A DNA stretch of 60,948 nt, taken from assembly GCA_011065065.1 (NCBI GenBank), contig JAAKFL010000001.1, positions 1 through 60,948 on the forward strand, given 5' to 3'. Source of the stretch: Chlamydiota bacterium. GTDB taxonomy: Bacteria > Chlamydiota > Chlamydiia > Chlamydiales > SLFE01. The notes under the pieces were generated by a model. The model worked only from the letters and a program-made list of their open reading frames with translations. It was not told the DNA's origin and did no database searches. Numbering within the stretch: the stretch's first letter is position 1; the number at the start of each line of letters is the position of its first letter. Below, one piece after another: positions 3,423 through 54,367 of the stretch. The position numbers and the translations under genes were made by a program.

Positions 3423-3444
3423 GTTATGAGAACAAAACCGGATA

Positions 3445-3533
3445 TTTTTTTTTACCACAGAGACACAGAGGCACAGAGAAGAGTAATCAAAAAAAATTGT
3501 TTCTCCTATCTCTGTGTCTCTGTGGTAAAAAAT
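3445..3533. repeat. CACAGAG-type inverted pair (hairpin) between convergent genes
   Basis: Arms ttttttaccacagagacacagag (3448-3470) and ctctgtgtctctgtggtaaaaaa (3510-3532) are exact reverse complements. U-rich flanks on both strands fit a bidirectional terminator. Confidence 0.75.
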
Positions 3534-3542
3534 TATCTGGGT

Positions 3543-3995
3543 TTATTTGAGGATGCTGACACTGCGATTAAGCATCATTTCCAGAAGGTTCTGAACTTCA
3601 GCTTTTCCTTGCTCGGCCTCGTCTAAATTGCGTTTGATGGTCATTATTTTATCGACTAGATCGGGACATAAGGTGATTTTACGAACATTTCTGGCATTTT
3701 CATGTTCTTCGAAACTACTTGGAAGCATTTGGCGTAATTCTTCTAACTCTTTTTGGCTTAAGCCGGGAGCGGGTCTAAATCTGGTCACACGTTCTTGTAT
3801 TCGGGATCCATCGCTACTGAAAATATTGACAGATTTTTTGCCAAAAATATCTGCAGCGTTATTGAAGGCGAGATTCTCAGAGGGAATATAGATTTCTTTG
3901 ATCCAGCTAGAAGAGTCACGAATAGGATCACGGGAAATTTTGACTTCATATTGAAAAGCTTTAATAAGACAAGATTCGGATTTCATAGGTTCCAT
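3543..3995 (-). CDS. hypothetical protein
   Basis: 150-aa ORF; no motif recognised. Confidence 0.55.
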   Translation of the reverse strand: MEPMKSESCLIKAFQYEVKISRDPIRDSSSWIKEIYIPSENLAFNNAADIFGKKSVNIFSSDGSRIQERVTRFRPAPGLSQKELEELRQMLPSSFEEHENARNVRKITLCPDLVDKIMTIKRNLDEAEQGKAEVQNLLEMMLNRSVSILK

Positions 3996-4122
3996 TTTTC
4001 CTCCTTATGTTTGATATTTAGTGTATCGGAAAAATACTAATTTATCAAGGGAGGTTTTGTTATTGCGTGATCTAAAGAGTCTTTCTGTGGTAAAATAGGA
4101 TTTAATCAACGGAGGTATTTTT

Positions 4123-4380
4123 ATGATTATGAAAGTTCCAGGTGGTCTTGTTATTCCAAGAGGTGATATTGAATCCTACAGAAATCAGCAAGAAGATTCC
4201 AAAGTCAGTCTCGACGATATCGAAAGTCGCATGTTGTTTCAAGATTACGTTGATTCTTGTACTTGTTCTGATTCTTTTTTTATTTGTATTCAAGGAGTTG
4301 GAGATTATGTTTCTGGCTGTGTGTCAGAACTTTATGAAGATTTGTTTGGGGAGAATGATTCTAGGGAGAAATACACTTAA
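4123..4380 (+). CDS. small acidic Cys-containing hypothetical protein
   Basis: GGAGG sits 9 nt upstream of the ATG. The stop overlaps the next start (TAATG), which suggests translational coupling. Confidence 0.45.
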   Translation: MIMKVPGGLVIPRGDIESYRNQQEDSKVSLDDIESRMLFQDYVDSCTCSDSFFICIQGVGDYVSGCVSELYEDLFGENDSREKYT

Positions 4381-5705
4381 TGACTCTTACAGATGTTCAA
4401 CCACAACTACTTGAGAATTGGAGTTCTTTACCAAAAGAGGAACAGTCTCAACTGACTCAACAAATTCGTGCCATTGATCTTGAGATTTTCAAGAAATTAC
4501 AAGACGCTCTTCATGAAGAGAAAAAACTTCACGAAGACTACGCACCGCTTAAAAAATATCTCACTTCTGGTTCAGACGAGAACACTCAAGTGGGAAAAGA
4601 TTTGATTGCTCAGGGAAAAGTAGGCTGTATCATTATGGCAGGGGGGATGGGAACTCGACTGCATTTTGAGGGTTCAAAAGGGATGTTTCCGATCACTCAA
4701 TTTCGTCAAAAATCTCTTTTCCAGTACTTCTCAGATCGTATTCGTGCTGCCAGCAAGATGTATCAAAAAGATCTTCCTGTTACGATCATGACATCTTCTT
4801 TGAATGACAAACAAACTCGAAAATTCTTCAAAGATCACGAATATTTTGGTTTAAATCCCGAACAACTTTCTTTTTATGTTCAAGGGGACCTTCCCTTTCT
4901 TGATCAACAAGGAAATTTATTTTTCGATTCTCAAGCTCACATTGCAGAGGGACCTGATGGGAATGGCGAGTTGCTTCACCATTTTTATCATTCAGGTTTG
5001 TGGAAACGTTGGAAAGAGCAGGGAGTTGAATATGTGAATATTATTCTCATCGATAACCCACTAGCAGATCCCTTTGATCCAGAATTAGTCGGGACGCACA
5101 AGCAAGAACAATGTGACATATTAGTGAAGGGAATCAAAAGAGAAGACCCGAAAGAAAAACTTGGAGTTCTCGTGCGAATTCATGACAAAGTTCACATTGT
5201 CGAGTACTCTGAACTTCCTGAAAAAGATATGGAAGCAACACTTTCGAATGGTGATCTTAAGTTTCCCTGTGGAAACCTCAGTCTCTTTTCAGTCAAAATG
5301 GATTTTTTTGAAAAAATCAAAAGCACTGATTTACCTCTCCATAAAGCTTTTAAAGCTCTTTCCTATTTGGATGTGAATGGAAAAAGGGTGAAACCAACAG
5401 AACCAAATGCTTGGAAATTTGAAAAGTTTATCTTTGACATCTTTCCTCATGGAACCGTCGAAGTGATGGTGTATCCGAGGGAGGAGTGTTTTTCTCCGTT
5501 GAAAAGAAGGGAAGGGGCAGATAGCCCAGAAACTGTGATGAGGGATTTACAGGAATTTGATCGAAGGACTTATCACGCGATCAGTGGGCTGGAGCCCCCC
5601 TCTCGTCCTTTTGAATTAGATCCTCAATTTTATTATCCTACAGAAGATATGCGCAAGAAGTGGGAGGGGAAGGCATTGCCAGAGGGTGATTACATCCTTC
5701 CGTAA
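4380..5705 (+). CDS. UDP-sugar / UDP-N-acetylglucosamine pyrophosphorylase, eukaryotic UDPGP type
   Basis: AGGMGTRL nucleotide-binding motif and overall UDPGP-family layout (441 aa). Confidence 0.8.
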   Translation: MTLTDVQPQLLENWSSLPKEEQSQLTQQIRAIDLEIFKKLQDALHEEKKLHEDYAPLKKYLTSGSDENTQVGKDLIAQGKVGCIIMAGGMGTRLHFEGSKGMFPITQFRQKSLFQYFSDRIRAASKMYQKDLPVTIMTSSLNDKQTRKFFKDHEYFGLNPEQLSFYVQGDLPFLDQQGNLFFDSQAHIAEGPDGNGELLHHFYHSGLWKRWKEQGVEYVNIILIDNPLADPFDPELVGTHKQEQCDILVKGIKREDPKEKLGVLVRIHDKVHIVEYSELPEKDMEATLSNGDLKFPCGNLSLFSVKMDFFEKIKSTDLPLHKAFKALSYLDVNGKRVKPTEPNAWKFEKFIFDIFPHGTVEVMVYPREECFSPLKRREGADSPETVMRDLQEFDRRTYHAISGLEPPSRPFELDPQFYYPTEDMRKKWEGKALPEGDYILP

Positions 5706-5830
5706 TTTTAACGCAAAGATGCAAAAGTCGCAAAGACGCAAAGAGTTTTCAAGTGTTATTTGGACCAACGGTCCATGCGCTTTTTAGACGCAGATAGCAC
5801 AGATGAGTGCAGATGGATTAAACATTCACC
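5706..5830 (+). repeat. composite repeat: TTTTAAC-GCAAAGA module + TGGACC-N3-GGTCCA palindrome + GCAGAT module
   Basis: Begins directly after the stop codon. It is the inverted partner of 7187-7327. Confidence 0.8.
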
Positions 5831-6149
5831 ATTCGGTTGTTAGAGCGTGTACTTGCTCTTTTTTGTGTTATTTCTCCACTAACTGCTTTAGCTATAATTT
5901 CACTTTTCAAAAGTTCTTTTTTAATCATTTTTATAATCTCCATAGGCGCTCCCATTTTTCAAAAGAGAACCGAAGATTATAACATAAGGATGACATTTCA
6001 ACTTAGTTTTATAGGTGACATTATCACGTTGCGTTTACACTGGTATTTTCTTTCTTGAAAAAAAAAGAAAAAACAGCTAACCTATTTAGGTTATTTCACA
6101 TGAGATCTAAGAATAAATGTAAACCGTTTTTGCATATAAAGGAAGTTTT

Positions 6150-7178
6150 ATGGACATTCAATCACCTTCATCTGGATTTTTTGAACTAATACCTCACGAA
6201 GTAACCGTATCCATTTTTCAAAATCTTGACCCTTCTTACCGAGGCACACTTTCCTGTGTTTGCAAAGTCTGGAACGAAATTGTGAATAATCAGTCCTTAT
6301 GCCGGAATTGGAAAAAGAACTATATGGTTCAAGGTGAAGGAATCTGCTGTAAGGTCGAAGATTATACGGGATTGGTTCATATCGAGGTAGGTAGGAAAGA
6401 TAGTAGTGTATCTAATACTTGGGTTTATGGTAGAGGATATAACCTATTTGAACGGGTTCCCGTTTTGAAAGTGAAAATTGGATCTCACGTTTTGTGCTCC
6501 GATCGAAAACATGCATTACCATCTGATGGTATTACCACAGAAGGTAGTGAATTCGTTTATTACAGATATAGTGATAGTTTGCGGTTCAAATTAATAGCTC
6601 CTCAAACTATTGAAATTTATTCACATGATACTTTTGACGATCAGGAATCCAGGGTTTATGTGGATACATCTGCGGATTATCGTTATTTGGTGCATAAAAC
6701 ATTAGACCTTTTCCCAATTAATGTTGAAGAGGGAATTTCTTACTTTGTCTGCGACTTTATTCCAAGGGAAATTTCCGAAAGTGAAGCTCAGGAGAGATTT
6801 GACGTTTTTGTGGCGGATGTTTCTTTATCTGAATACCGGTGTATTTATAACCGTTTTGGCCTAGTTGTGGAAAATATTGGTGAAAAAGGGTATCAAATGT
6901 TTTTATCACGGCCCAGTGATGAATCCTTTGAAGAAATTAAAATCGATCCCAAATTTTTGCCCTATTCAAAAGAAAGTATACGTCATATTACTACGAAGAA
7001 TGTGACGTTTTCAGGGTTAGATTATGGTTATTATGAAGGAGGTTCTTTTAAATTAATTGTTGTCAATTATGCGTCTGAAGAGAGTGATAAGGAGATTATA
7101 GTTCACTTAGAAGGAGAGGAAGCGACAACCCTTGTGCAAACCAAAGGATTTACAGTTCCCTATCGTATCATAAAATGA
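6150..7178 (+). CDS. F-box domain protein
   Basis: aa 13-54, LIPHEVTVSIFQNLDPSYRGTLSCVCKVWNEIVNNQSLCRNW, fits the F-box consensus (LPxE..I...L....L..L..VCK.W..L). The C-terminal 290 aa are unassigned. Confidence 0.85.
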   Translation: MDIQSPSSGFFELIPHEVTVSIFQNLDPSYRGTLSCVCKVWNEIVNNQSLCRNWKKNYMVQGEGICCKVEDYTGLVHIEVGRKDSSVSNTWVYGRGYNLFERVPVLKVKIGSHVLCSDRKHALPSDGITTEGSEFVYYRYSDSLRFKLIAPQTIEIYSHDTFDDQESRVYVDTSADYRYLVHKTLDLFPINVEEGISYFVCDFIPREISESEAQERFDVFVADVSLSEYRCIYNRFGLVVENIGEKGYQMFLSRPSDESFEEIKIDPKFLPYSKESIRHITTKNVTFSGLDYGYYEGGSFKLIVVNYASEESDKEIIVHLEGEEATTLVQTKGFTVPYRIIK

Positions 7179-7186
7179 TCGCGAGG

Positions 7187-7327
7187 TTTTAGACGCAGAT
7201 GGATTGAGTCTTCATGAAGGTTCAATCCATCTGCGCTCATCTGTGTTATCTGCATCTAAAAAGCGTATGGACTGTTGGTCCAAATAACCCTTTGCGTCTT
7301 TGCGACTTTTGCATCTTTGCGTTAAAA
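7187..7327 (-). repeat. composite repeat: GCAGAT hairpin + TGGAC-N5-GTCCA palindrome + GCAAAGA module, reverse orientation
   Basis: Its reverse complement aligns to 5706-5817 over about 100 nt with about 5 substitutions and one 10-nt indel (hand alignment). Confidence 0.8.
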
Positions 7328-7337
7328 GTTCAAAAGT

Positions 7338-8294
7338 TCAAAAGTCACCCGGATTAAGAGGCGGCAACACCGTGACAAATGAAAGCTCTTCTACATTCTC
7401 CACCGTCGGAACAGCTTCGATTTCGTAATAATAATCCCCTTCGCGAAGCATCTGTATTTTCGTCACGATGCCCACCTTCAGCCCCTTTGGGAAAACTCCG
7501 TCCATCCCTGTCGTCACAAGAAGATCCCCAGCCTTTAAGATAGGCATATCCGATCTTAATTCTCGTTCAGGACCATATTTATCTTCATAATCATAATTGA
7601 AACCCTCTCCAATCAACAGATGCCCGCGAGATCTCCATAACACATTGGCACTCCCATGAACCTCTCCCTTTGCAAGGTAAAGTGTTTGCCCCTCGACCTC
7701 TCGCAGGGCGCGAACTGAAGGAGTGAGTTCAGGATCTGTGATCAGCCTGATGCGAGATTTATGTTCTTTCACAAGCTCCACAACCCCCACAATGGAATCT
7801 CCCACCACCACAGGACTGTTTTTGGCAATGACTGGACGTCCTAATTTTTTGTTCTCATTTTCTCCGACATTGATCCAAAGAGTGCTGTTCCAAGAAGTGG
7901 GAGATCGGTAAATCACTTTTGCCGGACAAGAGCATAGTTCGAGATCAAACAGGGTGTAGGCCTCTTTTTGATTCCTTTCAAGATTCTCTACTGTTTCTAA
8001 AGTTAATCCTGTTTGGGCAATCATCTCTGTGGCTGTAACCTGCAGCTCATGTTCCCAAATAAAAAGCGCTTTGATCTCTTCGAGCTTGCTTTTCAGGAGA
8101 GTATTTTCAAGCTCAAGGCTTTCGATTTTCTGTGCTATACTTTGGTCTTGTTGGTATTGGATTTTTTTCCAAAGGGGAGAGAGCATTCCCACCATGACAC
8201 TCTGAAATTTTTGTGATGTGGAAGCAGAGACACTTAAAAGAAGAACAAGGGTGAGGGCAATCAGAAGCCAAGGACGTTTTTTAATTTTTTTCAT
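7338..8294 (-). CDS. mreC: rod shape-determining protein MreC
   Basis: N-terminal TM segment, a coiled-coil region, and a C-terminal beta domain with TTGMDGVFPKGLKVG. Overlaps the aspC stop by 4 nt. Confidence 0.75.
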   Translation of the reverse strand: MKKIKKRPWLLIALTLVLLLSVSASTSQKFQSVMVGMLSPLWKKIQYQQDQSIAQKIESLELENTLLKSKLEEIKALFIWEHELQVTATEMIAQTGLTLETVENLERNQKEAYTLFDLELCSCPAKVIYRSPTSWNSTLWINVGENENKKLGRPVIAKNSPVVVGDSIVGVVELVKEHKSRIRLITDPELTPSVRALREVEGQTLYLAKGEVHGSANVLWRSRGHLLIGEGFNYDYEDKYGPERELRSDMPILKAGDLLVTTGMDGVFPKGLKVGIVTKIQMLREGDYYYEIEAVPTVENVEELSFVTVLPPLNPGDF

Positions 8295-9475
8295 AGCACT
8301 TCGTTGAACGCCTCAGCAACTGTTTTCACATTTTTTGAAGTCACTCCCGCGATGTTCATTCTCCCATTCGAAGGCATGTAGATTCCATGTTCAGCACGCA
8401 ACAAACTCACCTGTTCGCGGTTGAGTCCCGTCATTGAGAACAATCCCCGTTGGTTTTGAATAAACGAAAAGTCGATAGAACTTTTGGTAGAATAGAGTTC
8501 CGCAACCAAAGCTTTACGCATTTCAATGATGCGATCACGCATATTCACAAGCTCCTCTTTCCATTCCAATGTTAATTCCGGAGACTGTAAGATAGTTTTC
8601 ACTATTCGGGCTCCGTGGGCCGGAGGAGAAGAATAAATCCCCCGGACAGTAGATTTGATTTGTGAGGCTAACTTCTTTACCGTATCTGCAGAATCGACAA
8701 AGAACGCCAAAAGCCCGATTCTTTCTCCATATAAACCAAAATTTTTAGAATGAGAAATTGTCAAAGCCATTTCATGCCCCTCATCAGCGAAATGGCGAAT
8801 CACCGCCGCATCCTGATCAAGTCCCCCACTAAATCCCTGATAAGCCATGTCAAAAATGGGAAAAAGTCCTTTTTCCTTCACCAGTGTGGAGATGATTTTC
8901 CACTGGTCGAAAGTAGGATCTATCCCAGTCGGATTGTGGCAACAAGCATGAAAGAGGATGAGGTCCCCATTTTTCATCATTTTGATGGCATCACACATCT
9001 CTTCAAAATCAAGTGTATGGTTGTGAGAGTAAGGGTAATGACCCAGTTCAAAGCCGCAACGTGAGAAAATATGGCGGTGGTTTGACCATGACGGGTGCGA
9101 CAGATAGAGGGTAGAGTTAGGGAATTGTTCTTTAAGAAAATCGCCAGCAATTTTGAGCGCTCCAGACCCCCCAACAGTCTGGGACGCATAGACTCGAGAC
9201 CTGTGGGGTGAATCTTCCCCCATTGCCAATTTAAGAGATTCTTCAATAAATCCCGGATCACCATCCATAGGAAGATATTCGTTATTTAGATTTTGTTCTA
9301 GAAGACGGACTTCCGCCTTTTGAACGCTGGTCAGGACAAGGGGATGACCCTCGGCATCGCGATATGCCCCGACCCCTAAGTTCACCTTGTTAGGGCGCTG
9401 ATCAGCAGCGAATAACGGGGGAATACACAGTATTGGGTCTTCGGGAATGAGTTCAGTATTTTTAAAATAAGTCAT
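8291..9475 (-). CDS. aspC: aspartate/aromatic amino acid aminotransferase (class I)
   Basis: NLGVGAYRD near the N-terminus and the PLP-lysine motif SHSKNFGLYGERIG. Confidence 0.9.
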   Translation of the reverse strand: MTYFKNTELIPEDPILCIPPLFAADQRPNKVNLGVGAYRDAEGHPLVLTSVQKAEVRLLEQNLNNEYLPMDGDPGFIEESLKLAMGEDSPHRSRVYASQTVGGSGALKIAGDFLKEQFPNSTLYLSHPSWSNHRHIFSRCGFELGHYPYSHNHTLDFEEMCDAIKMMKNGDLILFHACCHNPTGIDPTFDQWKIISTLVKEKGLFPIFDMAYQGFSGGLDQDAAVIRHFADEGHEMALTISHSKNFGLYGERIGLLAFFVDSADTVKKLASQIKSTVRGIYSSPPAHGARIVKTILQSPELTLEWKEELVNMRDRIIEMRKALVAELYSTKSSIDFSFIQNQRGLFSMTGLNREQVSLLRAEHGIYMPSNGRMNIAGVTSKNVKTVAEAFNEVL

Positions 9476-9540
9476 AGACCTCCAGATGAGTCGAAATCAT
9501 TCAAAATTGTAATATAAAGAGTCTTTTTTTAAAACTCGCC

Positions 9541-9686
9541 TTTGTACAATTTTTGAACTCATCTTCCGAGAGAAGCTTCCTCCAGCTGGATAAATTTCTC
9601 AGGAAGGGTAAAAAATACCCTTCCTTCGAAATTTATTACGCTGGAGATTGCTTCTCTCTGGAATATTCGGTCAAAAATTGTACAAA
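9541..9686. repeat. 146-nt imperfect palindrome in the aspC/rpoD divergent intergenic region
   Basis: The termini tttgtacaatttttga (9541-9556) and tcaaaaattgtacaaa (9671-9686) are exact reverse complements. Interior blocks gagagaagc, ctccagc, ataaatttc and aggaagggta also pair. Confidence 0.75.
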
Positions 9687-9887
9687 ATCGAGTAAAGAAA
9701 TCTTGAGTTAAATCCCCAACTTCTATAAAAGATGGGGTATTGAATAATTCCAACACTAGCAGGCTTGACAAAAACCCCCACATATTCAATGATATTACGT
9801 ACAGATTCTGCGAATTTTTTTGCATAACTTTAAATAGTGAAGTGAAAGAATTTGCTTTTTTTGTCGACACTTTAATTTTACGGTGGC

Positions 9888-11552
9888 ATGAGCAAATCCA
9901 ACAATAAAGATACTTTTACTCCTCAACATCAGCAAAAGATTGATGAGCTGGTGACTCTTGCAAAAGACCAGGGTTTTATCACTTACGAAGAAATCAACGA
10001 TATCTTACCCATGTCGTTTGATAACCCTGAACTGATCGACCAGGCGTTGATTTTCCTGACGGGAATGGATATACAGATTCTCAATCAATCTGAAGTTGAG
10101 CGTCAAAAAGAGCGTAAAAAAGAGGCCAAAGAGCTTGAAGCTCTTCCTAAACGGGCAGAAGGGACACCGGATGATCCCGTACGAATGTACCTTAAAGAGA
10201 TGGGTTCAGTCCCTCTTCTTAGCCGAGAAGAAGAGGTTGAAATTTCCAAGCGAATTGAAAAAGCTCAGCAACAAGTTGAAAAAATTATTTTACGATTCCG
10301 ATATTCTGCTTCTGAAGCCATTGCCATAGCGGCGTATCTTGTTCAAGGTAAGGAACGTTTTGATAAGTGCATTTCGGAAAAAGAGGTTTCGAATAAACAG
10401 GAATTTTTGAAGAAGCTCCCTAAATTATGTGATTTGTTGAAAAATGAAGATCTTGCTTTGGAATATCTCTTTGTTCAGCTTGATAATCCCAAGATCAAGA
10501 AAACTCAGGTAGTAAAAGTTCAAGAGGAAGTTGAAAAGAGCCGGATCCGGACTCAGGCTTATTTAAGGCATCTGCATCTTCGCTCCAATATTATCGAAGA
10601 TTTTGGGGAAGTCATTCTCCAATCATACAATCGATTTTTGGAGTTAGAGAAAGAGATCAATGAGTTGGCCCCTCGTGCAGAGTTGAATCGATTTGCGATG
10701 GCCAAGATGAAAGCGGCCAAGCGGAAGTTGCAGAAGAAAGAGTTAGCAGCGGGCCGAACACTGGAAGAGTTTAAGAAAGATGTTCGGATGCTTTATCGTT
10801 GGATGGATAAAGCACAAGAGGCGAAGCGGGAGATGGTGGAATCCAATCTCCGTTTGGTCATTTCGATTGCAAAAAAGTATACTAACCGTGGTCTTTCCTT
10901 CTTGGATTTGATTCAAGAAGGGAATATGGGCTTGATGAAAGCTGTCGAGAAGTTTGAGTATCGTCGAGGGTATAAATTTTCGACATATGCGACTTGGTGG
11001 ATTCGTCAGGCGGTGACCAGGGCGATTGCTGACCAAGCGCGAACGATTCGAATACCGGTTCATATGATTGAGACCATCAATAAAGTGTTGCGTGGTGCCA
11101 AGAAGTTGATGATGGAGACGGGGCGTGAGCCTACGCCTGAGGAATTGGCTGAGGAACTCGGGATTACTCCAGAGCGTGTCCGCGAGATTTATAAAATCGC
11201 TCAGCATCCGATATCCCTTCAAGCGGAAGTGGGTGATGGGGGAGAAAGTCAGTTTGGGGACTTCTTGGAAGATACCACAGCCGACTCGCCATCCGAAGCC
11301 ACAGGTTATTCGATATTGAAGGACATGATGGCCGAAGTGCTTGAAACTTTGAGTGACAGAGAGCGGAAAGTTTTGATTCAACGATTTGGACTTGCTGATG
11401 GTAAGCCGAAAACCTTGGAAGAGGTGGGAGTTGAGTTCAACGTCACACGTGAACGGATTCGTCAGATTGAGGCCAAAGCGCTGCGTAAGATGAGGCACCC
11501 CACTCGGTCGAAGCGATTGCGATCTTTCCTAGAGTTCTTGGAAGAAGAATGA
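9888..11552 (+). CDS. rpoD: RNA polymerase primary sigma factor (sigma-70 / sigma-66 type)
   Basis: Region 2 motif [27 protein letters not shown] and region 4.2 motif [30 protein letters not shown]. Confidence 0.95.
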
Positions 11553-11612
11553 TACCTTATGTATTTATACCGATCGTGATTAAAAAATCGGGATTTTGGC
11601 TTTGAGAAAGAC

Positions 11613-11681
11613 CCGTGATTAAGCGATCATAAGTCGATCCATATTATTAATATTGATCGACTTATGATCGCTTAATCACGG
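11613..11681 (+). terminator. 27-bp perfect inverted repeat: candidate rpoD terminator and/or dinG leader structure
   Basis: ccgtgattaagcgatcataagtcgatc, a 15-nt AT loop, then gatcgacttatgatcgcttaatcacgg, followed by aggttttctcttt. The 3' arm abuts the GGAGG upstream of the dinG TTG start. Confidence 0.4.
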
Positions 11682-11692
11682 AGGTTTTCTCT

Positions 11693-13915
11693 TTGTCAAA
11701 AACCGATTTTTTAAACACGATTGGTATAGATCCCGAACCGATACTTGAGCTCTTAAAACCGGGCGGTCGATTATGCGCGTTCCTAAAGGAGTTTGAGTCA
11801 CGGCCTCAACAAGCGGAAATGATGGAAAGTGTCATTTCTGCTTTCAATGACAAAGAAATTTCTCTTATTGAAGCTGGAACCGGAACGGGTAAAAGTATCG
11901 CTTATCTAATTCCGGCTGTCATCAAAGCCGTTTATCATAAAGAACGGACACTGATCTCGACTAAAACAATTAATCTTCAGGAACAATTAATCCAAAAAGA
12001 CTTGCCGCTTGTCAGCAAGGTTTTGGGAGTCGACTTTAAGGCGGTTTTGGTCAAAGGGATGGGCAATTATCTTTGCCTGCGTAAACTACAAGATTCCTCG
12101 ATGGAAGAATTATTTCTTCCGAACAATCAAGCCGATCAGCTGCGAAGGATTGCCGCTTGGGGACAACAGACGAAGACGGGTTCAAAATCTGATCTTCCTT
12201 TTAATCCTTTCTCCGCTGTTTGGGAAAAGGTCAATTGCGAAGCTGATACTTGTACGTTTCGAAAGTGTCCTTTTTATCAGCAGTGTCACTTTTTTAAGGC
12301 GCGCGAAGAAGCCAAAGATGCGCAGATTTTGGTGTCAAACCATCACTTATTATTTGCTGACCTTGCTTTAAGAGCTGAAGAGGAGAATTATGAAGAAGCG
12401 GCTCTGTTGCCTTCGTACAAACATGTCGTGGTAGACGAAGCGCATCATATTGAAGAGGTGGCGACTGATTTCTTTGCACAACGCGTTTCGCGAACCGACT
12501 TGATGAAGATTATGGGACGATTGGCTTCGGAAAAGGCCGGAGATGATGCGGGGAGACTTCCTCTTCTCAAAAAAAAACTCATTCAATTTTACAAAAAAGG
12601 GCCGCATGATCAGATTGAGAACCTTCTGAATACTTTCAATGTCGATTTATCTTTTTGTCGTCGAGAAGTCATTCAAGGTATTGCCGATTTGTTTCAGGCG
12701 CTTTCATTTTTCTTTGAAGAAAAGCTTTCGAAACAGGATGAGGAAAATAAGCTTCGTCTCCATCCTCATCATTATTCAGAAAAAGTCTGGGAAGAAGAGG
12801 TAGTGCCGGCGGCACAAAAGTTCTTGCATTCCATTAAAAAATATGTGCGGATGCTTCAGACCCTCTGCCGTGATATTAGAGACATTGATCAAGATCAGCT
12901 TCAAGAACAAGCTCTAGGGTTGTTGACCGAAGTCAACGCTTATGCAGGCCGATTGGATTCTTATGGTCAGGTTGTTGAGGAATTTGTTTTTAGTGAGATC
13001 AAGGATGATAGTGTTCGTTGGATTGAAAGCCATCAAATGAAAACTTTGAATAACATTCACTTGATTGAAGCCAAGCTCGACGTCTCACCTCATTTAGTGC
13101 AGAACTTTTTCTCGAAATTTCAGACCATTATCCTGTGTAGTGCGACACTCAGCACAAATCAAAATTTCGGATTTATGAAAAAGAGGTTGGGGCTCGATTC
13201 AGATCTACTTTCTTGTCGCACGATCAATGAGAAGATTTTTCAATCTCCTTTTAACTTTCAAAAGCAATCGCTACTTCTGGTTCCTTCGACTTTACCGCCC
13301 CCTAACCATAAAAATTATGTTGATGTGGCATCTGAAAGCATATTGCAAGCGATTAAGGCCAGTCACGGAAACTGTTTCATTCTTTTTACATCATACACCA
13401 TGTTGAAACAATGTTATGAAAAACTGAGCTCAAGACTGCGAAGTCTCCGTTTCCCCATCATGAAGCAAGGAGATGATCAGAGGCAAGCTTTACTATGTTT
13501 GTTTCGAAAGACAGAAAGATCGGTCCTTTTTGCCACAGATTCGTTTTGGGAGGGAGTTGACGTTTCAGGGGAAGCTTTGCGTTGCGTGATTTTGGTGAAA
13601 TTGCCCTTCAAAGTCCCTTCTGAGCCTATTTTTCAGGCCCGTTCAGAGTTGATTGCCAAGAACGGAGGAGATCCCTTTAGGGATTATGCGCTTCCCGGAG
13701 CCGTTGTCAAATTCAAGCAAGGTTTTGGTCGATTGATTCGTCATAAGTGTGATCGAGGAGTCGTCGTTGTTCTCGATACCCGTTTGATGACCAAAGGGTA
13801 TGGAAAAATCTTCTTAAGAAGTTTGCCTGATTGTCCAAAATTGTTTACTCAGGATCTGGAAAAAGAGATGAAGGAATTTTATCGGCGGACTTATCCATTA
13901 GTTCTTTCGAGGTAA
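11693..13915 (+). CDS. dinG: DinG/XPD-family ATP-dependent DNA helicase
   Basis: Walker A AGTGTGKS, DEAH box VVDEAHH, and the Fe-S Cys cluster CEADTCTFRKCPFYQQC. Confidence 0.85.
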   Translation: MSKTDFLNTIGIDPEPILELLKPGGRLCAFLKEFESRPQQAEMMESVISAFNDKEISLIEAGTGTGKSIAYLIPAVIKAVYHKERTLISTKTINLQEQLIQKDLPLVSKVLGVDFKAVLVKGMGNYLCLRKLQDSSMEELFLPNNQADQLRRIAAWGQQTKTGSKSDLPFNPFSAVWEKVNCEADTCTFRKCPFYQQCHFFKAREEAKDAQILVSNHHLLFADLALRAEEENYEEAALLPSYKHVVVDEAHHIEEVATDFFAQRVSRTDLMKIMGRLASEKAGDDAGRLPLLKKKLIQFYKKGPHDQIENLLNTFNVDLSFCRREVIQGIADLFQALSFFFEEKLSKQDEENKLRLHPHHYSEKVWEEEVVPAAQKFLHSIKKYVRMLQTLCRDIRDIDQDQLQEQALGLLTEVNAYAGRLDSYGQVVEEFVFSEIKDDSVRWIESHQMKTLNNIHLIEAKLDVSPHLVQNFFSKFQTIILCSATLSTNQNFGFMKKRLGLDSDLLSCRTINEKIFQSPFNFQKQSLLLVPSTLPPPNHKNYVDVASESILQAIKASHGNCFILFTSYTMLKQCYEKLSSRLRSLRFPIMKQGDDQRQALLCLFRKTERSVLFATDSFWEGVDVSGEALRCVILVKLPFKVPSEPIFQARSELIAKNGGDPFRDYALPGAVVKFKQGFGRLIRHKCDRGVVVVLDTRLMTKGYGKIFLRSLPDCPKLFTQDLEKEMKEFYRRTYPLVLSR

Positions 13916-13940
13916 AGTACTCCCAACGAACTTTATGCTT

Positions 13941-13977
13941 TTTTTCACCACAGAGGCACAGAGGTACAGAGAAGAGT
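13941..13977 (+). repeat. CACAGAG-type repeat module
   Basis: tttttcaccacagaggcacagaggtacagagaagagt lies between convergent genes. Confidence 0.7.
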
Positions 13978-14008
13978 CATAATATAATTTTTGTTGCTCC
14001 TTTACACT

Positions 14009-15157
14009 CTATTTATCTGTTAACATTTCCCTGTACAATAAGGGCAACGCAATACTTAACTGTTCTTCCACTTCCAACAATGTTTCTGGATCCACTTGGC
14101 AAAAATAGGGAACCTTGCAGTAAGCTTTATGTTTTCCGTTTAAAGAAACTGCTTCGGAAACAGGGTAATAGGGCAAAATCCAGTACCCTCCTAAAAAATG
14201 AAGGTCAATTTGACGGTTATTGTAAGCCAAAATGAAAGCCACCCGCATAGTAGGTTGAAAAATTTGATTATCGAAGTGGGGAACAGGGATAGGATCTGAT
14301 GAAAAGAATTCTTCAACGATAAATGTATCAAAGTGATCTTTATACCAGTATTGATAAGACTTGTCAGGGTCTATATGTAGTTGGGAACTTTTGATTAAAA
14401 TATATTTAAGGGTTTCATCCAGATCTTCTTGATTCACGATGATGACACCGTTTCCAAGGTAGGCCCCACGAGGTTTAATCACAAATTGATCACTTTGTAT
14501 CTCTGAAATGATTTTTTTGGCTAAATCTAGAGAATATATTTTCTCATAAAGATTCCATCTTGGTTTGAATGAGGCCAATATTTCATTGCGGGAGAAAAGT
14601 TCAGTCATTTTATATTTGTCTTGCCAATAGGAGTTGGAGGCAGCATCAATGAAAATGATACCGGGGTACTTTTCGATAAATTTGTCGATATTTTGAATTT
14701 GCCTTCCTCTTAAACAAACACACCCATGATAAGACTGGAGATTATACGGATCTTCAACGGGAAGTACGGACTGACGCATAAAATGGGAATCGGATTTTAT
14801 TGAATTAACTCCCTTCGTGACATGCCATTCAGGGGATGACTTCAATATGTTGCAAATTTGCACTTCAGAAAAACTGTCGGCTGTTGTCCAAAATTCATTT
14901 TGGTATTGGAGTAACGTATGATAGAAATTTATAGGGATAATTCCTGGCTCTCCATGTGAAAATCGATCACCATAAAAAGTCGAATCGGTTCCATGCTGGA
15001 TTTCACAAATTTTGACTCCGTCTCTCTGATTATATTTAAGGTCGGCAATGAGAAATGTTATGTCCGCAGGAAGCGTTGCATCGATCAATTCGTTTTCGAC
15101 ACCTTCGAGAGTGCTAACAAGTAGCAGTACCCAAAGAATAAGTATTTTAATTTTCAT
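14009..15157 (-). CDS. secreted ATP-grasp-like (TTL-like core) protein, paralog 1
   Basis: Signal-peptide-like N-terminus MKIKILILWVLLLVSTLEG. Core FVIKPRGAYLGNGVIIV, then FIVEEF...QPTMRVAFILAY, resembles the ATP-grasp/TTL WIxKP..G.G.GI and KFDLRVYVLV blocks. No clear E-x-N Mg site seen. Confidence 0.6.
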   Translation of the reverse strand: MKIKILILWVLLLVSTLEGVENELIDATLPADITFLIADLKYNQRDGVKICEIQHGTDSTFYGDRFSHGEPGIIPINFYHTLLQYQNEFWTTADSFSEVQICNILKSSPEWHVTKGVNSIKSDSHFMRQSVLPVEDPYNLQSYHGCVCLRGRQIQNIDKFIEKYPGIIFIDAASNSYWQDKYKMTELFSRNEILASFKPRWNLYEKIYSLDLAKKIISEIQSDQFVIKPRGAYLGNGVIIVNQEDLDETLKYILIKSSQLHIDPDKSYQYWYKDHFDTFIVEEFFSSDPIPVPHFDNQIFQPTMRVAFILAYNNRQIDLHFLGGYWILPYYPVSEAVSLNGKHKAYCKVPYFCQVDPETLLEVEEQLSIALPLLYREMLTDK

Positions 15158-15168
15158 GTATGAACCTT

Positions 15169-16305
15169 TTAATTCTCTGCAATTAACATCTCTTTGTACA
15201 ACAAAGGTAATGCCACATGAAGTTGTTTTTCGACCTCCCTCAACGTTTCAGGGTCTACTCGGTAAAAATAGGGAATCTTGCCACAGTTTTTATGTTTTTC
15301 ATTTAAGGTGCCTTCATCGGATAATGATAAACGTGGAAGTTTCCAATACGCTCCAAGAATATGTAAATCAATCTCACGATTATGATAAGCACAAATGAAA
15401 GCCACGCGCATTGTTGGTTGATAGAGTTGATTATCAAGATGAGGGATACAGAGGGGATCTGATGCGATGAATTCTTCGACAAGGAAGGTGTGAGATCGAT
15501 CTTTATACCAATAATTGTAAGAATTATCAGGATCTTTATCAAGTTGACGACTTTTGATGAGAATATATCGCAGTGTTTCATCTAAATCCTCTTGATTGAC
15601 AATGATCACACCATTTCCTAAATAGGAACTTCTGGGCTTAATGACAAACCAATCACTTTTTATTTCTTCGATAATTTTTTGAGCGAGTTGCGCATCGTAT
15701 TCCTTTTTATAAAGATGCCATCTTGGTTTGAATGAGGACAGGTTTTCATTGCGAGAAAACAGCATCGACATCTTATATTTATCTTCCCAGTAGGGAATAG
15801 ATGCCTCATCAATGAGAATGATCCCCGGGTATTTTTTCATGAATTTGCGATGTTTGTTAAGAACCCATTTTCTTGTACATATACATCCATGATAGCTTTG
15901 GATGTTAGTCGGATCTTCAACAGGAAGGGCCGCTTGTTGCAAAAAAAATGCGTTTCTTTCAACAGCTGGTAGATGATCAAGCACATGCCATTCAGGTGAG
16001 GCCATCAACTGATTTTTTATCTGCGCCTCAGAAAAATTATTATGAGTCGTCCAAAATTCATTTTGATATTGAAGTAACGTGAGGTAAAAATTTTCGGGAA
16101 TAATCCCTGGTTCGCCATGAGAATAGCGATCGCCGGAAAATGCTGAAGCAATTCCATGCTGAATCTCACAAATTTTCACACCATCCTTTTGATTGTACTT
16201 AAGATCGGCAACGAGGAATGTGATATCCACTGGGTATTGAGATTCAAAACCTTCTAAAGTGAAAATGAAAAAGAGAGCCGTAAGAAATATTGCTTTAAAT
16301 TTCAT
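15169..16305 (-). CDS. secreted ATP-grasp-like (TTL-like core) protein, paralog 2
   Basis: Roughly two thirds identical by eye to the adjacent paralog. Same signal peptide ending TLEG and the same FVIKPR..YLGNGVIIV core. Only an 11-nt gap to paralog 1. Confidence 0.6.
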   Translation of the reverse strand: MKFKAIFLTALFFIFTLEGFESQYPVDITFLVADLKYNQKDGVKICEIQHGIASAFSGDRYSHGEPGIIPENFYLTLLQYQNEFWTTHNNFSEAQIKNQLMASPEWHVLDHLPAVERNAFFLQQAALPVEDPTNIQSYHGCICTRKWVLNKHRKFMKKYPGIILIDEASIPYWEDKYKMSMLFSRNENLSSFKPRWHLYKKEYDAQLAQKIIEEIKSDWFVIKPRSSYLGNGVIIVNQEDLDETLRYILIKSRQLDKDPDNSYNYWYKDRSHTFLVEEFIASDPLCIPHLDNQLYQPTMRVAFICAYHNREIDLHILGAYWKLPRLSLSDEGTLNEKHKNCGKIPYFYRVDPETLREVEKQLHVALPLLYKEMLIAEN

Positions 16306-16401
16306 GTGTGACTTTTCGTGAAATTTAATCTTAGATTATCCTCGAGAGTCATATATTGCAAATTTCAAGCCCTAAATGATTCATATCATGAAGTTAAGAG
16401 A

Positions 16402-16617
16402 ACAGTATCCGTAGGGAAGTCGCATGAAGAAATTTCTTAACGTTTACCAACCATTTTTCCTGAAAAAGCATCCTGTATATCCTTATTATCCTGCCTATCC
16501 TGTTTTTTTTTCGGACGTGAAAAATAGGATAGGCAGGATAGTAAGGATTAACAGGATAAAACGTCCAGAAAATTGTATCAAGAAATTTTTTTATGCAATT
16601 TCACTGACAGTATCCGT
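16402..16617. mobile_element. MITE-like element carrying an ATCCTG-type hairpin, flanked by 11-nt direct repeats
   Basis: ACAGTATCCGT occurs at 16402-16412 and 16607-16617. Imperfect terminal inverted repeats are agggaagtcgcatgaagaaatttctt and caagaaatttttttatgcaatttcactg. The central hairpin is 16470-16507 / 16520-16557. Confidence 0.4.
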
Positions 16618-16724
16618 GCCGGCGTTCAATGAAGTTCTATAAATTCTTCTTTATAAAAAACATGCATTTTGTGTATAAGTAAAAAACTTAGGTAGAAAAG
16701 TTTTATACAAATTTGGAGTTCTCT

Positions 16725-17504
16725 ATGAGTAGTCGATTTATGAGTTTTATTATTTCAGTTATCTTGATCTTTTCCATATTATTGCCCGATTTTGCTTTTT
16801 CTGAAGTTGGAGTTGAGGGATATCAAAGCAGGAGAAAAATTTCTTCACAAGAGGCTGCTGAGTTAGAATCAGGATGCCATGATGATGAGACTTATTGGGA
16901 GGCCGAAAGTGTAGGTCCTGTTTGCGAAGCCTCTTCCCAGCCAGATGAGTCAGTTCACGTCAATCTAAAGCCACGAAGGGTCTCAGTGCCATCATCGCCG
17001 AGTCGAGAAGAAGTGGACTGTCCATATGTTTATGAAGAACCCTGCGAACCGATGCTTTACGAAGAGTGTAATGAACCCTGTGCTCCTTGTGGGAAAAAGT
17101 TTTTGTTTCCAATTGCAGCCACTGCTGCGGGATTGGCGATTGGGGCCGTTGAAGCGACAAATTGTCATAAAGGTTGTGATCCGCTTGCTGATCAGTTGGA
17201 TTTTGTGGTGACGATAACTTTAAGTCCTGATGAATCTGCTGCCAGTTTGGGTCTTGATATTCTTTTTCCTAATCTATCACTCCTTCAAGCACTTAGTTTC
17301 TCTTCGAGCTCATCTGGAACGTTCACTCAGACAAGCGTTTCCACTACCAATTTTGTGAGTGGTGATAATTTCACTGTTGATGTGACTGCTGAAAGTCAGG
17401 CGTCCAATTTGATTGTGAGTGGGAGGATTAACGGAGTGATCTTTGATACACAAACTGTTCCAAGTCCAAATACTTCAACAAATTTAACCTTTACGATTCC
17501 TTGA
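16725..17504 (+). CDS. lineage-specific envelope/secreted protein, paralog P1 (Cys-rich acidic region, glycine-zipper hydrophobic segment, Ser/Thr-rich C-terminal domain)
   Basis: Signal-like N-terminus, CPYVYEEPCEPMLYEECNEPCAPC, FLFPIAATAAGLAIGAV, and a C-terminus GVIFDTQ...NLTFTIP. Start moved to the ATG at 16725, downstream of GGAG. Confidence 0.7.
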   Translation: MSSRFMSFIISVILIFSILLPDFAFSEVGVEGYQSRRKISSQEAAELESGCHDDETYWEAESVGPVCEASSQPDESVHVNLKPRRVSVPSSPSREEVDCPYVYEEPCEPMLYEECNEPCAPCGKKFLFPIAATAAGLAIGAVEATNCHKGCDPLADQLDFVVTITLSPDESAASLGLDILFPNLSLLQALSFSSSSSGTFTQTSVSTTNFVSGDNFTVDVTAESQASNLIVSGRINGVIFDTQTVPSPNTSTNLTFTIP

Positions 17505-17511
17505 GGTAGTC

Positions 17512-17976
17512 ATGAAAAGAGTCGTGCTTGTGAGACATGCTAAGCCCGAAAGTGCTGCATTTACGAATGACTCAGAAAGACCTTTGAGTGATGAAGGGCG
17601 TCAGGTTCATGAAAAGATCTCTCATGAATTGAGACAACAAAACATTGTGCCCACAAAAATTATAACCTCTCCTTTATTAAGAGCCAGGCAAACCGCTGAG
17701 ATTATGTCAAAAGTCTTTGATGGTGTTCCGATTCAGGAATCGGCGATTTTAGATGGAACGCATAGCGTAGATGAGATTGTTGAGACGATTGCAGACATGG
17801 AACATGGAGAAAGCATTTTTCTTGTAGGTCATGATCCGAACATGACCCAATTTGTCAATAAGCTCGGATCTGAAAAGGTAACGGAAGGGGTTCATAAGAG
17901 TGGGTGTGTCGTTTTTGATTTTCCGGATGAAATTTCCTTTGGGAAAGGGCAATACGTCGGATACATTCATCCGTGA
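17512..17976 (+). CDS. sixA: SixA-like phosphohistidine phosphatase (histidine phosphatase superfamily)
   Basis: VLVRHAKPE (RHA catalytic motif) and VGHDPN (second His). 154 aa, typical of SixA. Starts 8 nt after the P1 stop. Confidence 0.7.
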   Translation: MKRVVLVRHAKPESAAFTNDSERPLSDEGRQVHEKISHELRQQNIVPTKIITSPLLRARQTAEIMSKVFDGVPIQESAILDGTHSVDEIVETIADMEHGESIFLVGHDPNMTQFVNKLGSEKVTEGVHKSGCVVFDFPDEISFGKGQYVGYIHP

Positions 17977-18043
17977 TAATTTTCTTTCAATATATCGAAT
18001 TTTTTGGTAAAAGTATTTTTTTAGTCTTCAAATTGGTGTCGTT

Positions 18044-18406
18044 ATGTACAAGTACATTTTTATCTTAGTCACTGTTCTTCTACCACTTTCAGCATTTGCA
18101 GATGGTGGGGTAACAGGGTATCGGACTCAAAGACCGACTACAACTTCCAAAACTGTTGTGGAATCTGGTTGCCGTGATGCTGGCATGCGTTCCGAATTGG
18201 AAAATGTGGGAATTCCCAGGAAGGACCCGATAGAAATTGTGGTTCAATATGTTGAGCCAGATGATGAAGAAGTGGTTATGGCAGATGAGTTATTGATTCT
18301 GGATGCCGAAAGGTCTGTGCCGGCTGCAAAAGGGAAGAGAAGAGTGTCTCCCTCAAGATCATCGCTTTCTAATTCTCCCTTAAAACCAATAAGAGCCTCA
18401 AATTGA
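18044..18406 (+). CDS. paralog P2: N-terminal-module-only member of the P1 family
   Basis: Signal peptide plus GVTGYRTQR...ESGCRD matches P1 GVEGYQSRR...ESGCHD. KRRVSPSRSS matches P1 PRRVSVPSSPS. The hydrophobic and C-terminal domains are missing. Confidence 0.55.
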   Translation: MYKYIFILVTVLLPLSAFADGGVTGYRTQRPTTTSKTVVESGCRDAGMRSELENVGIPRKDPIEIVVQYVEPDDEEVVMADELLILDAERSVPAAKGKRRVSPSRSSLSNSPLKPIRASN

Positions 18407-25174: not shown

Positions 25175-25176
25175 GA

Positions 25177-25317
25177 AGCCGCAGATTCACACAGATTTTC
25201 GCAGTTAGATTAACGCAAAGATGATTGAGCAAGTCAGGCACGGACAACTTTGCTCCTTAGCGTCTTTGCCCCTTTGTGTTAATCTATCTGCGGCAATCTG
25301 CGTTCATCTGCGGCTAA
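25177..25317. repeat. composite imperfect palindrome: GCAGAT x3 + TTAAC + GCAAAG modules on each arm
   Basis: The left arm agccgcagattcacacagattttcgcagttagattaacgcaaag aligns with the reverse complement of the right arm, agccgcagatgaacgcagattgccgcagatagattaacacaaag. Confidence 0.75.
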
Positions 25318-25429
25318 AATCCTTTGAACAAGTCGCTTACGACCTCCACCAAATTTTTCTTGAAACCTTAGATCCATTATGGCAACCTTGAATGTGCCCC
25401 TTAACGCTAATTGTTAAATAAGGTTCGTT

Positions 25430-27070: not shown

Positions 27071-27133
27071 TTTGGATGATTTATGTGGTCAATTGGCCAC
27101 ATAAAGCATCCAAATCATTACTTTCGAGACACC
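27051..27133. repeat. 83-nt near-perfect palindrome overlapping the thyX stop codon
   Basis: gggtgtctcaaaagttatgatttggatgatttatgtggtcaat versus the reverse complement of the right arm, gggtgtctcgaaagtaatgatttggatgctttatgtggccaat: 4 mismatches in 43. Confidence 0.75.
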
Positions 27134-27212
27134 CTCTAAACTCCGTCAATAATTTTCTTGGTTCAAAACTCACTTAACCTCTATTGTTTTAGAAAAATGG
27201 AGGTTAAGAGTT

Positions 27213-44544: not shown

Positions 44545-44566
44545 TTAGTGGCCCGTGCGTTTTTTG

Positions 44567-44793
44567 GCCGCAGATGAACGCTGATGATCGCGGATGGAAT
44601 TTTAACGCAAAGATGCAAAGTCGCAAGTCACTTATTATAAACCATTTAAAAAAAACATCCTGTCCATCCTTACTATCCTTTTATCCTGTTACCCTGTGCT
44701 AAAAAAACAGGATAAAAGGATAGTAAGGATGGACAGGATGTGGTTATTTCCCGATAGGGGTCCTGAAAGGACTGGCTCGCTTTGCGTTAAAAA
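44567..44793. repeat. composite repeat: GCAGAT module + TTTTAAC-GCAAAG module + nested ATCCTG hairpin + reverse GCAAAG terminus
   Basis: The ATCCTG arms at 44656-44690 and 44706-44740 are near-perfect reverse complements. The outer pair is ttttaacgcaaag (44600) and ctttgcgttaaaa (44780). Confidence 0.75.
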
Positions 44794-53550: not shown

Positions 53551-53820
53551 CCGCGGATGAAATTTTAACGCAAAGGGGCAAAGACACAAAGACACAAAGA
53601 CGCAAAGATTTGTGCTTGTGCATTATGATCACGAAGTGATCTCGAACTTTTAGACGCAGATGTCGCAAATGAACGCAGATTTTTTTAACTTGAAAAAGTT
53701 AAAAAAATCTGCGTTCATTTGCGACATCTGCGTCTAAAAAGCGCATGGACCGTTGGTCCAAGTCAGGCGAACTCTTTCTTTGCGTCTTTGTGTCTTTGCT
53801 TCTTTGCGGTTAAATTTTTT
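53551..53820. repeat. 270-bp nested composite palindrome (GCAAAG arms outside, perfect GCAGAT hairpin inside)
   Basis: The inner stem 53648-53691 / 53696-53739 is 44 bp with no mismatch and a GAAA loop. The outer arms are at 53563-53608 and 53775-53820. A TGGACC-N3-GGTCCA palindrome lies at 53746-53760. Confidence 0.9.
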
Positions 53821-54362: not shown

Positions 54363-54367
54363 CAACC

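Follow-up and report, generated by a model that had tools for sequence, protein, structure and literature searches.

The 60,948-nt stretch of Chlamydiota contig JAAKFL010000001.1 analyzed here (hereafter the window) carries a gene for an F-box protein (6150–7178, plus strand, 342 aa) that lies between two convergent housekeeping genes and is framed by a pair of inverted repeats. To its left is a UDP-sugar pyrophosphorylase gene (UDPGP; 4380–5705, plus strand; PF01704, E 9.6e-31), which is syntenic in the relatives L003, L004, and L007; to its right is mreC (7338–8294, minus strand; PF04085), convergent with both UDPGP and the F-box gene. MreC has 1858 homologs, the nearest of which are metagenomic and 61–68% identical, with Waddliaceae and Parachlamydiaceae at ~40–46%; placed by these homologs, the host belongs to an undescribed chlamydial lineage. 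The F-box occupies residues 12–52 of the protein and matches PF12937 (36.7 bits; cut-off 24.3) and PF00646 (33.8 bits; cut-off 20.5). The two flanks are truncated copies of a dispersed palindromic repeat, arranged head-out and tail-in. We propose, with a probability of about 0.6, that the F-box gene was gained in a permissive convergent slot, that the spacers so created hold two decaying copies resembling transposable elements of the miniature inverted-repeat type (MITEs) or repetitive extragenic palindromic (REP) sequences, and that their inverted arrangement arose incidentally.

The first base after the UDPGP stop (TAA, 5703–5705) opens the left repeat, and the right one ends 10 nt short of the mreC stop (7338–7340), the same distances as given in the original prediction. 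That prediction described an F-box open reading frame (ORF) bracketed by inverted composite repeats, and 5706–5828 and 7215–7327 are indeed mirror images, with ~90% identity inside an exact 38-nt outer arm. Two exact occurrences of the 38-mer TTTTAACGCAAAGATGCAAAAGTCGCAAAGACGCAAAG are present in the window, at 5706–5743 (plus) and 7290–7327 (minus), where 0 occurrences are expected in 100 shuffles, so the claim that the outermost 38 nt are identical holds in full (38/38). A repeat scan of the window recovers the pair as two sets of inverted arms, 5697–5747/7286–7336 (51 nt) and 5751–5828/7215–7292 (78 nt), each 90% complementary. The outer arm is separated from the next module by 16 nt in the left copy versus 6 nt in the right, which accounts for the 10-nt indel already noticed; in the 69 nt after this spacer we count 7 differing positions, in place of the ~5 substitutions in ~64 nt first reported. 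The right repeat had been drawn as 7187–7327, of which 7215–7327 mirrors the left copy; the remaining 7187–7214 belongs to the right copy's central hairpin, as its shortened partner arm, and lies outside the mirrored part. Between the right repeat and mreC, a tandem octamer (GTTCAAAA ×2, 7328–7343) overlaps the mreC stop. The F-box gene itself is preceded on the plus strand by an AT-rich unique region (5829–6149; 30% GC) that ends in an AAGGAAG ribosome-binding site just before the ATG; BLAST found no similarity of these 321 nt to repeats or to the upstream regions of paralogs. A terminator scan returned hairpins at 5761–5775 and 5842–5859, both between UDPGP and the F-box gene, and an Rfam search of 5500–7500 gave nothing meaningful.

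Short-read contigs L001, L002, L025, and L026 all terminate within repeats, which raises the question of whether the F-box segment was misplaced or misoriented between UDPGP and mreC during assembly. We regard this as scarcely credible. Scaffolds L001 and L025, from two independent assemblies of one sample, are identical to window 3523–7302 and 7248–18294, respectively; L001 spans the entire left repeat, from UDPGP into the F-box gene, and the two overlap by 55 nt inside the right repeat, in a segment that carries right-copy-specific variants and is unique among the sequences sampled. Because the overlap is unique, the arrangement is not an assembly artefact; the exact repeat is, moreover, just 38 nt long, and the resulting gene order agrees with the conserved synteny of relatives.

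The mirrored arms, 86–100% complementary over ~115 nt at a distance of 1.4 kb and perfectly conserved in their outer parts, could also be imagined to function as a pair, either by allowing inversion of the 1.5-kb F-box segment or by pairing over ~115 nt in a UDPGP read-through transcript, where a long double-stranded stem would enclose the F-box mRNA and control its processing or stability. Such a role is very unlikely. Both an upstream region and a ribosome-binding site lie within the segment, so its inversion would not act as an expression switch, and all independent contigs show one orientation; the terminator-like hairpins at 5761–5775 and 5842–5859 argue against read-through, and other F-box paralogs are without such arms.

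Turning to the repeats themselves, an alignment of six copies (left, right, 53552–53817, and one each on contigs L012, L013, and L014) defines a canonical element of 160–270 bp with the order OL, X, long central hairpin, Y, and OR. The outer arm OL consists of TTTTAAC and two to five GCAAAG-type octamers, and OR is its mirror; module X is a small hairpin, TGGACC-AAC-GGTCCA, followed by TGCGCTTTTT; the central hairpin has two arms (h and h′) of CGCAGAT-type units; and module Y is a GATCAC-NNN-GTGATC hairpin. Complete copies measure ~220–265 bp and have mirrored outer arms of 26–41 nt that are 88–94% complementary. The reference complete element of the window, a 266-nt nested palindrome at 53552–53817 between convergent TauE and PdxT (SNO) genes, reads OL, Y, long hairpin, X, OR and folds at −97.7 kcal/mol (z −17); within it, at 53726–53761, lies the third window copy of the inner module TTGGACCAACGGTCCATGCGCTTTTTAGACGCAGAT. 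All copies start with (T)TTAAC and end with GTTAA(A), such that a palindromic TTAA/TA duplication would merge with the terminal repeat.

Both flanks of the F-box gene are incomplete by this standard. A profile built from three complete copies (251 positions) was run with nhmmer on 105.6 kb of the same genome. The left copy matches profile positions 2–125 at 5704–5828, that is, the first half of the element up to its symmetry centre. It comprises OL (5706–5743, plus strand; TTTTAAC and four GCAAAG-type octamers, aligning to the OL of complete elements), X (5760–5786, plus strand; invariant in 6/6 copies, including the appended TGCGCTTTTT, and weakly terminator-like, directed away from UDPGP), and the left arm h of the CGCAGAT-type hairpin (5782–5828, plus strand), which stops at the palindrome centre and has no partner arm. 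The reverse-strand match of the right copy spans positions 2–210 (7329–7149), ~84% of the element. Here the outer arm (7290–7327, minus strand) is the exact reverse complement of 5706–5743, X (7262–7283, minus strand) forms a weakly terminator-like hairpin and T-run downstream of mreC, and the central hairpin (7187–7261) retains both arms—a full-length one at 7215–7261 and the shortened partner at 7187–7214, which bears a 19-nt slippage deletion between GCAGAT repeats—with an inverted repeat at 7194–7214/7215–7235. The copy ends inward in a degenerate Y (7149–7186, minus strand), and the outer arm expected beyond Y is missing. This truncated end, reaching leftward to ~7149–7167, overlaps the last codons and stop of the F-box ORF; its identity as Y is supported by 83% identity of 7167–7201 to 53628–53662. 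RNA folding assigns the right-copy central hairpin a z of −3.7 to −4.2, and the left copy alone, at z −1.4, is not unusually stable.

Since X is present at each outer side and the Y remnant is internal, the flanks are two copies of the repeat and not one element; for this reason we rejected the idea of a single palindromic element split by cargo, in which X and Y would fall on opposite sides. Nor are the two copies, by their identities, an exceptional pair. They are 0.86–0.90 identical to each other, the L014 copy is 0.87–0.88 identical to each, and the L013 copy reaches 0.92–0.94 over shared parts; two G-to-A variants in the right-copy X are common to the L013 copy and absent from the left copy. 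We also rejected the 38/38 identity of the outer arms as a significant signal, as these arms consist mostly of family-invariant GCAAAG cores and by our own calculation have ~7 free positions. A preferred orientation of X as terminator of the adjacent gene was likewise discarded: most copies have convergent genes on either side, so that both orientations fit, and the L013 copy is a counter-example.

The repeat family is dispersed beside unrelated genes. The nhmmer search recovered seven substantial copies plus fragments in the 105.6 kb, and family copies adjoin groEL, rpe, EamA/RmuC, TauE/PdxT, and an unidentified ORF of 487 aa. Complete or variant copies occur at L012 9126–9374, L014 210–428 (groEL 3′ end), and L013 189–347 (between a needle-like gene and rpe); at L020 3394–3534, between EamA and RmuC, is a variant that has neither X nor one of the hairpin arms, and element fragments are found at 25.2 and 44.6 kb of the window, with one-arm pieces of these repeats elsewhere in it (such as 823–886). 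Contigs L012, L013, and L014 came from a pattern scan of JGI/GenBank metagenome contigs (whole-genome shotgun set SDBV01) and are taken to derive from the same organism because SDBV01 holds an F-box paralog of the sample and the three contigs share several other repeat families with the window. The exact 26-nt pattern of module X had 0 matches in 185,579 species-representative genomes, and searches of the literature turned up no account of such repeats from Chlamydiae.

More generally, the window repeats are built of tandem 7–9-nt units in the flavours CGCAAAG, CACAGAG, CGCGAAGAT, CGCAGAT, and ATCCTGT; they are usually palindromes that begin just past stop codons, and some are nested in one another. 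A BLAST census placed a dispersed repeat in 13 of the 32 window spacers of at least 30 nt (~40%), distributed as 5/7 convergent, 5/15 tandem, and 2–3/9 divergent spacers. Repeats occupy the spacers on both sides of four gene units in the window, and we calculate a chance of ~0.18 that two of three X-bearing copies would occupy adjacent spacers among 32. The simple intergenic saturation that the original prediction had named as the outcome contrary to its proposal is thus closely approached; a mechanistic link between the repeats and the arrival of this one gene keeps some probability. Repeats also insert without cargo. The spacer between the needle-like gene and rpe contains the element in L013 and lacks it in the relative L017 (79 nt), and the RpoD/helicase spacer, which is 0–13 nt long in relatives, has received a repeat insertion here; with relatives this distant (MreC 68% identical), the comparison of L013 and L017 speaks of presence or absence and not of precise insertion. 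The insertion in the RpoD/helicase spacer (11553–11731) consists of 140 nt of CGTGAT-type nested palindromes, with arms at 11613–11646/11648–11681 that are 97% complementary. Compound nested elements at 44545–44793 and 25175–25323 carry, in this order, CGCAGAT, CGCAAAG, an ATCCTGT palindrome, an GTCCTGAAAGGAC hairpin, and CGCAAAG; at 25.2 kb the modules are nested in the opposite order to the canonical element.

The UDPGP/mreC junction was compared in relatives through exact-protein look-ups of MreC homologs, a scan of 185,579 species-representative genomes with the UDPGP protein having found no relatives. Gene order RpoD–AspAT–MreC–[slot]–UDPGP is conserved in the nearest of them. The empty site that the original prediction suggested seeking exists in L003 (MreC 68% identical), where the mreC and UDPGP stops overlap in gaTTAAgg. 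In L004/L005 (67%) the slot holds an unrelated 529-aa ORF and in L007/L008 (61%) an unrelated 137-aa ORF with no Pfam match, neither with flanking repeats; in L010 (54%), HipA/HipB-type genes adjoin mreC. We considered whether these slot genes might be F-box homologs and rejected this, as no homology was found. From these comparisons, the junction is a recurrent site of lineage-specific gene gain that is independent of repeats. One half of the earlier proposal of an inserted or mobilized cassette therefore stands, in that the gene is an addition at this junction, empty in L003; the other half, that the repeats define an F-box cassette, is not supported, as they belong to a dispersed family.

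In the F-box protein, the N-terminal F-box is followed by a conserved, beta-rich region that matches no further Pfam family. Its gene has a GC content at third codon positions of 0.29, compared with 0.35–0.46 in the adjacent conserved genes. An AlphaFold2 model reached a mean pLDDT (predicted local distance difference test) of 68.6 and a pTM (predicted template modeling score) of 0.68, with low confidence in the first 50 residues, and a Foldseek comparison of this model to the PDB gave no match with E below 0.01. By analogy with F-box effectors of other bacteria, the protein probably recruits the host Skp1–cullin–F-box (SCF) ubiquitin ligase to substrates. A word-index protein search returned only the protein itself, and an alignment-based search one further member; an exhaustive phmmer search of 1.8 billion representative proteins identified seven full-length homologs, 31–46% identical, five of them from the window's own sample. 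Six other F-box paralogs fall at four loci: P0123 on L018, adjoined by a second ORF with a weak F-box match; P0127, P0125, and a third tandem copy on L020 (4964–8248), with no dispersed repeats adjoining and a variant CGCAAAG element 1.4 kb away; P0124 on L021; and P0126 on L022.

The original prediction had suggested asking whether these paralogs carry the same flanking modules, and at the four other loci of the same genome they do not: no CGCAAAG/X element was found within 700 nt of any of the six, and L018 and L020 do contain the window's repeat families. Only L018 has a palindrome upstream, directly after the mcsB stop, and it is of a different, ATCCT type. All paralog pairs are at most 46% identical and so give no sign of recent cassette copying; copies of the repeat are 75–90% identical to each other. 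Judged by this divergence, the F-box family is old. The suggestion that repeat recombination drove its expansion thus finds no support, with six paralogs at four loci free of the modules and none more than 46% identical. Previously, F-box expansions in chlamydiae have been attributed to tandem duplication and birth-and-death evolution, with no repeat-flanked cassettes described for these families (Domman et al. 2014, PMC4209131). We conclude that the gene at hand is a lineage-specific insertion and that repeat-driven cassette mobility as a general engine is not supported.

Our preferred explanation starts from what is observed at the locus and elsewhere in the genome—the membership, architecture, and truncation points of the two copies, the dispersal of their family, the variability of the slot, and the absence of the modules at other paralogs. 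A lineage-specific, effector-type F-box gene would have been gained where the 3′ ends of UDPGP and mreC converge. Each of the resulting spacers would hold a decaying copy of a selfish, non-coding, nested-palindromic repeat: a half element between UDPGP and the F-box gene and an ~84% element between the F-box gene and mreC, both with their OL–X ends facing the housekeeping genes. With the OL–X ends beside the housekeeping genes and the inner ends lost, the inverted-repeat geometry would arise automatically. The elements may spread by MITE-like copying or recombination and decay by deletions centred on the palindrome; their arrival or persistence in the new spacers would not have depended on the gene. 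Module X, with its hairpin and T-run, may weakly terminate or stabilize the UDPGP and mreC transcripts.

Several observations weigh against this explanation. The ends of the 1.6-kb unit are those of a single canonical element (TTTTAACGCAAAG ... CTTTGCGTTAAAA), its outer arms are 38/38 identical, and within single complete elements both outer arms likewise share element-specific variants. A loop-proximal motif, GGATTRAACNTTCA, is common to the left and right copies and is not seen in other copies. The left copy stops at the hairpin's symmetry centre, as would be expected if the hairpin had broken at its tip and an insertion had followed. P0122, the closest homolog (45% identical), sits at another locus (acpP/dinB) of L017, the presumed closest relative, where it is bracketed by 55-nt direct repeats (3687–3741 and 4862–4916; 93% identical), no other copy of which occurs in 14.9 kb. 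A second lineage-specific ORF, orf150 (3543–3995), lies between a CACAGAG palindrome and a half arm. Finally, the base rates given above are rough, coming from only ~106 kb of genome. These hints of repeat involvement are suggestive, each being weak individually; they could also arise if repeats are better tolerated in the young, unconstrained spacers next to accessory genes than in those of conserved operons. With respect to the two loci named, the upstream 55-nt repeat of L017 sits within a larger nested palindrome at 3657–3796 (region 3657–4928). The minus-strand orf150 has no Pfam match and is absent from the yacP/orf85 junction in L004 and L007; its flanks (region 3423–4122) are a complete 87-nt CACAGAG-type palindrome (3446–3532) and a half arm of the same flavour (4082–4096).

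Taken together, the same hints allow a tentative alternative, somewhat unlikely in our judgment, in which the repeats mechanically helped to integrate the gene, through breakage and joining at palindromes or through movement of a composite pair. In one version, an F-box segment with a partial repeat at its 3′ end joined a resident palindromic element broken near its hairpin centre; in another, two elements with intact outer arms moved as a composite MITE-pair unit into the TTAA between the stops. The outer termini of a single element and the cut of the left copy at the palindrome centre fit this alternative, as does the empty site of L003, a TTAA common to both stops, given that every copy begins TTAAC and ends GTTAA; a palindromic TTAA is, however, indistinguishable from part of the terminal repeat. 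The nested flavours at 44545–44793 and 25175–25323 suggest that palindrome interiors are favoured joining sites, but half elements and cargo-free elements are common, and X on both sides with a Y remnant inside shows that the unit is not one split element. In a neighbour-joining tree the window F-box gene pairs weakly with P0122, and the difference in locus between the two points to relocation or differential loss; the treatment of L003 and L017 as one organism is based only on their shared sample and similar GC. The direct repeats around P0122 and the CACAGAG arms bounding the orf150 insertion fit as well, yet adjacency statistics are weak (~0.18 here and ~0.1 in L017, by our own calculations). 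The unit of flanks plus cargo recurs only in contigs 100% identical to the window, so a second copy was not found; the six other paralogs are without modules; the slot genes of L004 and L007 arrived without repeats; and a scan of 35 window ORFs found no transposase domain. An integron-type cassette was also considered and rejected, as no integrase gene was found and the flanks belong to a dispersed family and are not attC-like sites.

A broader form of this idea, which we consider doubtful, is that in this uncultured lineage nested palindromes serve as landing pads or recombination substrates for capturing and relocating accessory and effector genes between the 3′ ends of housekeeping genes. 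The candidates that may exemplify it are the F-box gene here, P0122 between its 55-nt direct repeats, and orf150 between CACAGAG arms. We continue to favour a gene gained in the convergent slot beside repeats that arrived independently.

Several further features of the window concern repeats or effector-like genes. The PdxT (SNO) ORF (53763–54374) runs ~55 nt into the outer arm of the complete element before its stop; the repeat appears to contribute the codons for its C-terminal residues, as with the last codons of the F-box ORF. Another palindromic repeat, of 173 nt, occupies the divergent AspAT/RpoD spacer (9521–9692) and recurs at 83% identity at L013 658–830, between two genes resembling needle components of the type III secretion system. 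A one-arm CGCGAAG repeat fragment (823–886) lies just upstream of tRNA-Arg (ACG; 972–1047). This tRNA gene overlaps the listed GTG start of a metallo-beta-lactamase-fold ORF (1001–1699), the true start of which is probably further downstream. An ankyrin-repeat protein of 498 aa (27213–28709) is a eukaryote-like candidate effector; its gene is preceded by a 100-nt palindrome (27043–27142) that overlaps the ThyX 3′ end and is followed by a GC-rich hairpin (28705–28764). Tandem paralogous ORFans of 382 and 378 aa (14009–16305; 70–77% nucleotide identity, no Pfam match) have repeat elements on both sides, at 13939–14020 and 16420–16565.

If our preferred reading is correct, the locus counsels caution: a gene framed by inverted repeats in a repeat-rich genome is not thereby a cassette. 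What is new is an undescribed modular, hairpin-forming repeat family present in ~40% of the sampled spacers, of the known kind of intergenic palindromic or MITE-like repeats, together with a convergent UDPGP/mreC junction that acts as a recurrent slot for lineage-specific genes and a new F-box effector family, itself of a known kind, with an uncharacterized C-terminal region. Were the repeats instead to have assisted integration, they would offer a concrete mechanism for accessory-gene movement within obligate intracellular genomes, and if they act as landing pads, this would mean that genes move by a repeat-mediated route in a phylum considered to have few mobile elements.

Among known systems, the elements most closely recall bacterial MITEs such as the Correia elements of Neisseria and the Rickettsia palindromic elements. 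Like these, they are short (160–270 bp) and non-coding, with terminal inverted repeats and strong hairpin potential; they occur in many dispersed, mostly intergenic copies that are 75–90% identical and vary in presence between related genomes; and some overlap gene ends and add C-terminal codons (PdxT, 53763–54374; F-box, 7149–7178). They differ in that the 35 window ORFs scanned yielded neither a cognate transposase nor a parent insertion sequence, and in arms that are arrays of 7–9-nt units in several interchangeable flavours nested within each other. Cyanobacterial short tandemly repeated repetitive (STRR) arrays are likewise intergenic, with tandem 7–8-nt units and several sequence flavours per genome; the arrays here differ in forming the mirrored arms of long nested palindromes, and in a chlamydia. 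We know of no gene for a REP-associated tyrosine transposase (RAYT) in this organism. As far as PMC3733652 describes them, the REP sequences, bacterial interspersed mosaic elements (BIMEs), and REP doublets forming hairpins (REPINs) of proteobacteria are similar in being extragenic palindromes at gene 3′ ends and between convergent genes, in their composite or mosaic arrangement, and in their proposed roles in termination and mRNA stabilization. REP units in that account are 20–40 nt with a GTAG or CGTC head, whereas the elements here are 5–10 times longer and begin with TTTTAAC; none is a 20–40-nt palindrome with such a head, as REP/BIME sequences and REPINs are. The F-box unit resembles a composite transposon or Pack-MITE in its inverted copies with intact outer and degraded inner ends, its single gene, and the empty site in a relative; it differs in showing no sign of having moved whole, no second copy, and no similar bracketing of paralogs. 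According to Domman et al. (2014, PMC4209131), chlamydial genomes are not littered with mobile elements. Compared with the F-box effector families of Parachlamydiaceae (PMC4209131), the host here belongs to another chlamydial lineage and the C-terminal region is beta-rich and not of leucine-rich repeat (LRR) or tetratricopeptide repeat (TPR) type; shared with those families are the N-terminal F-box, at least seven paralogs per genome, a tandem group of three (L020), and a pattern of divergence that fits old birth-and-death evolution.

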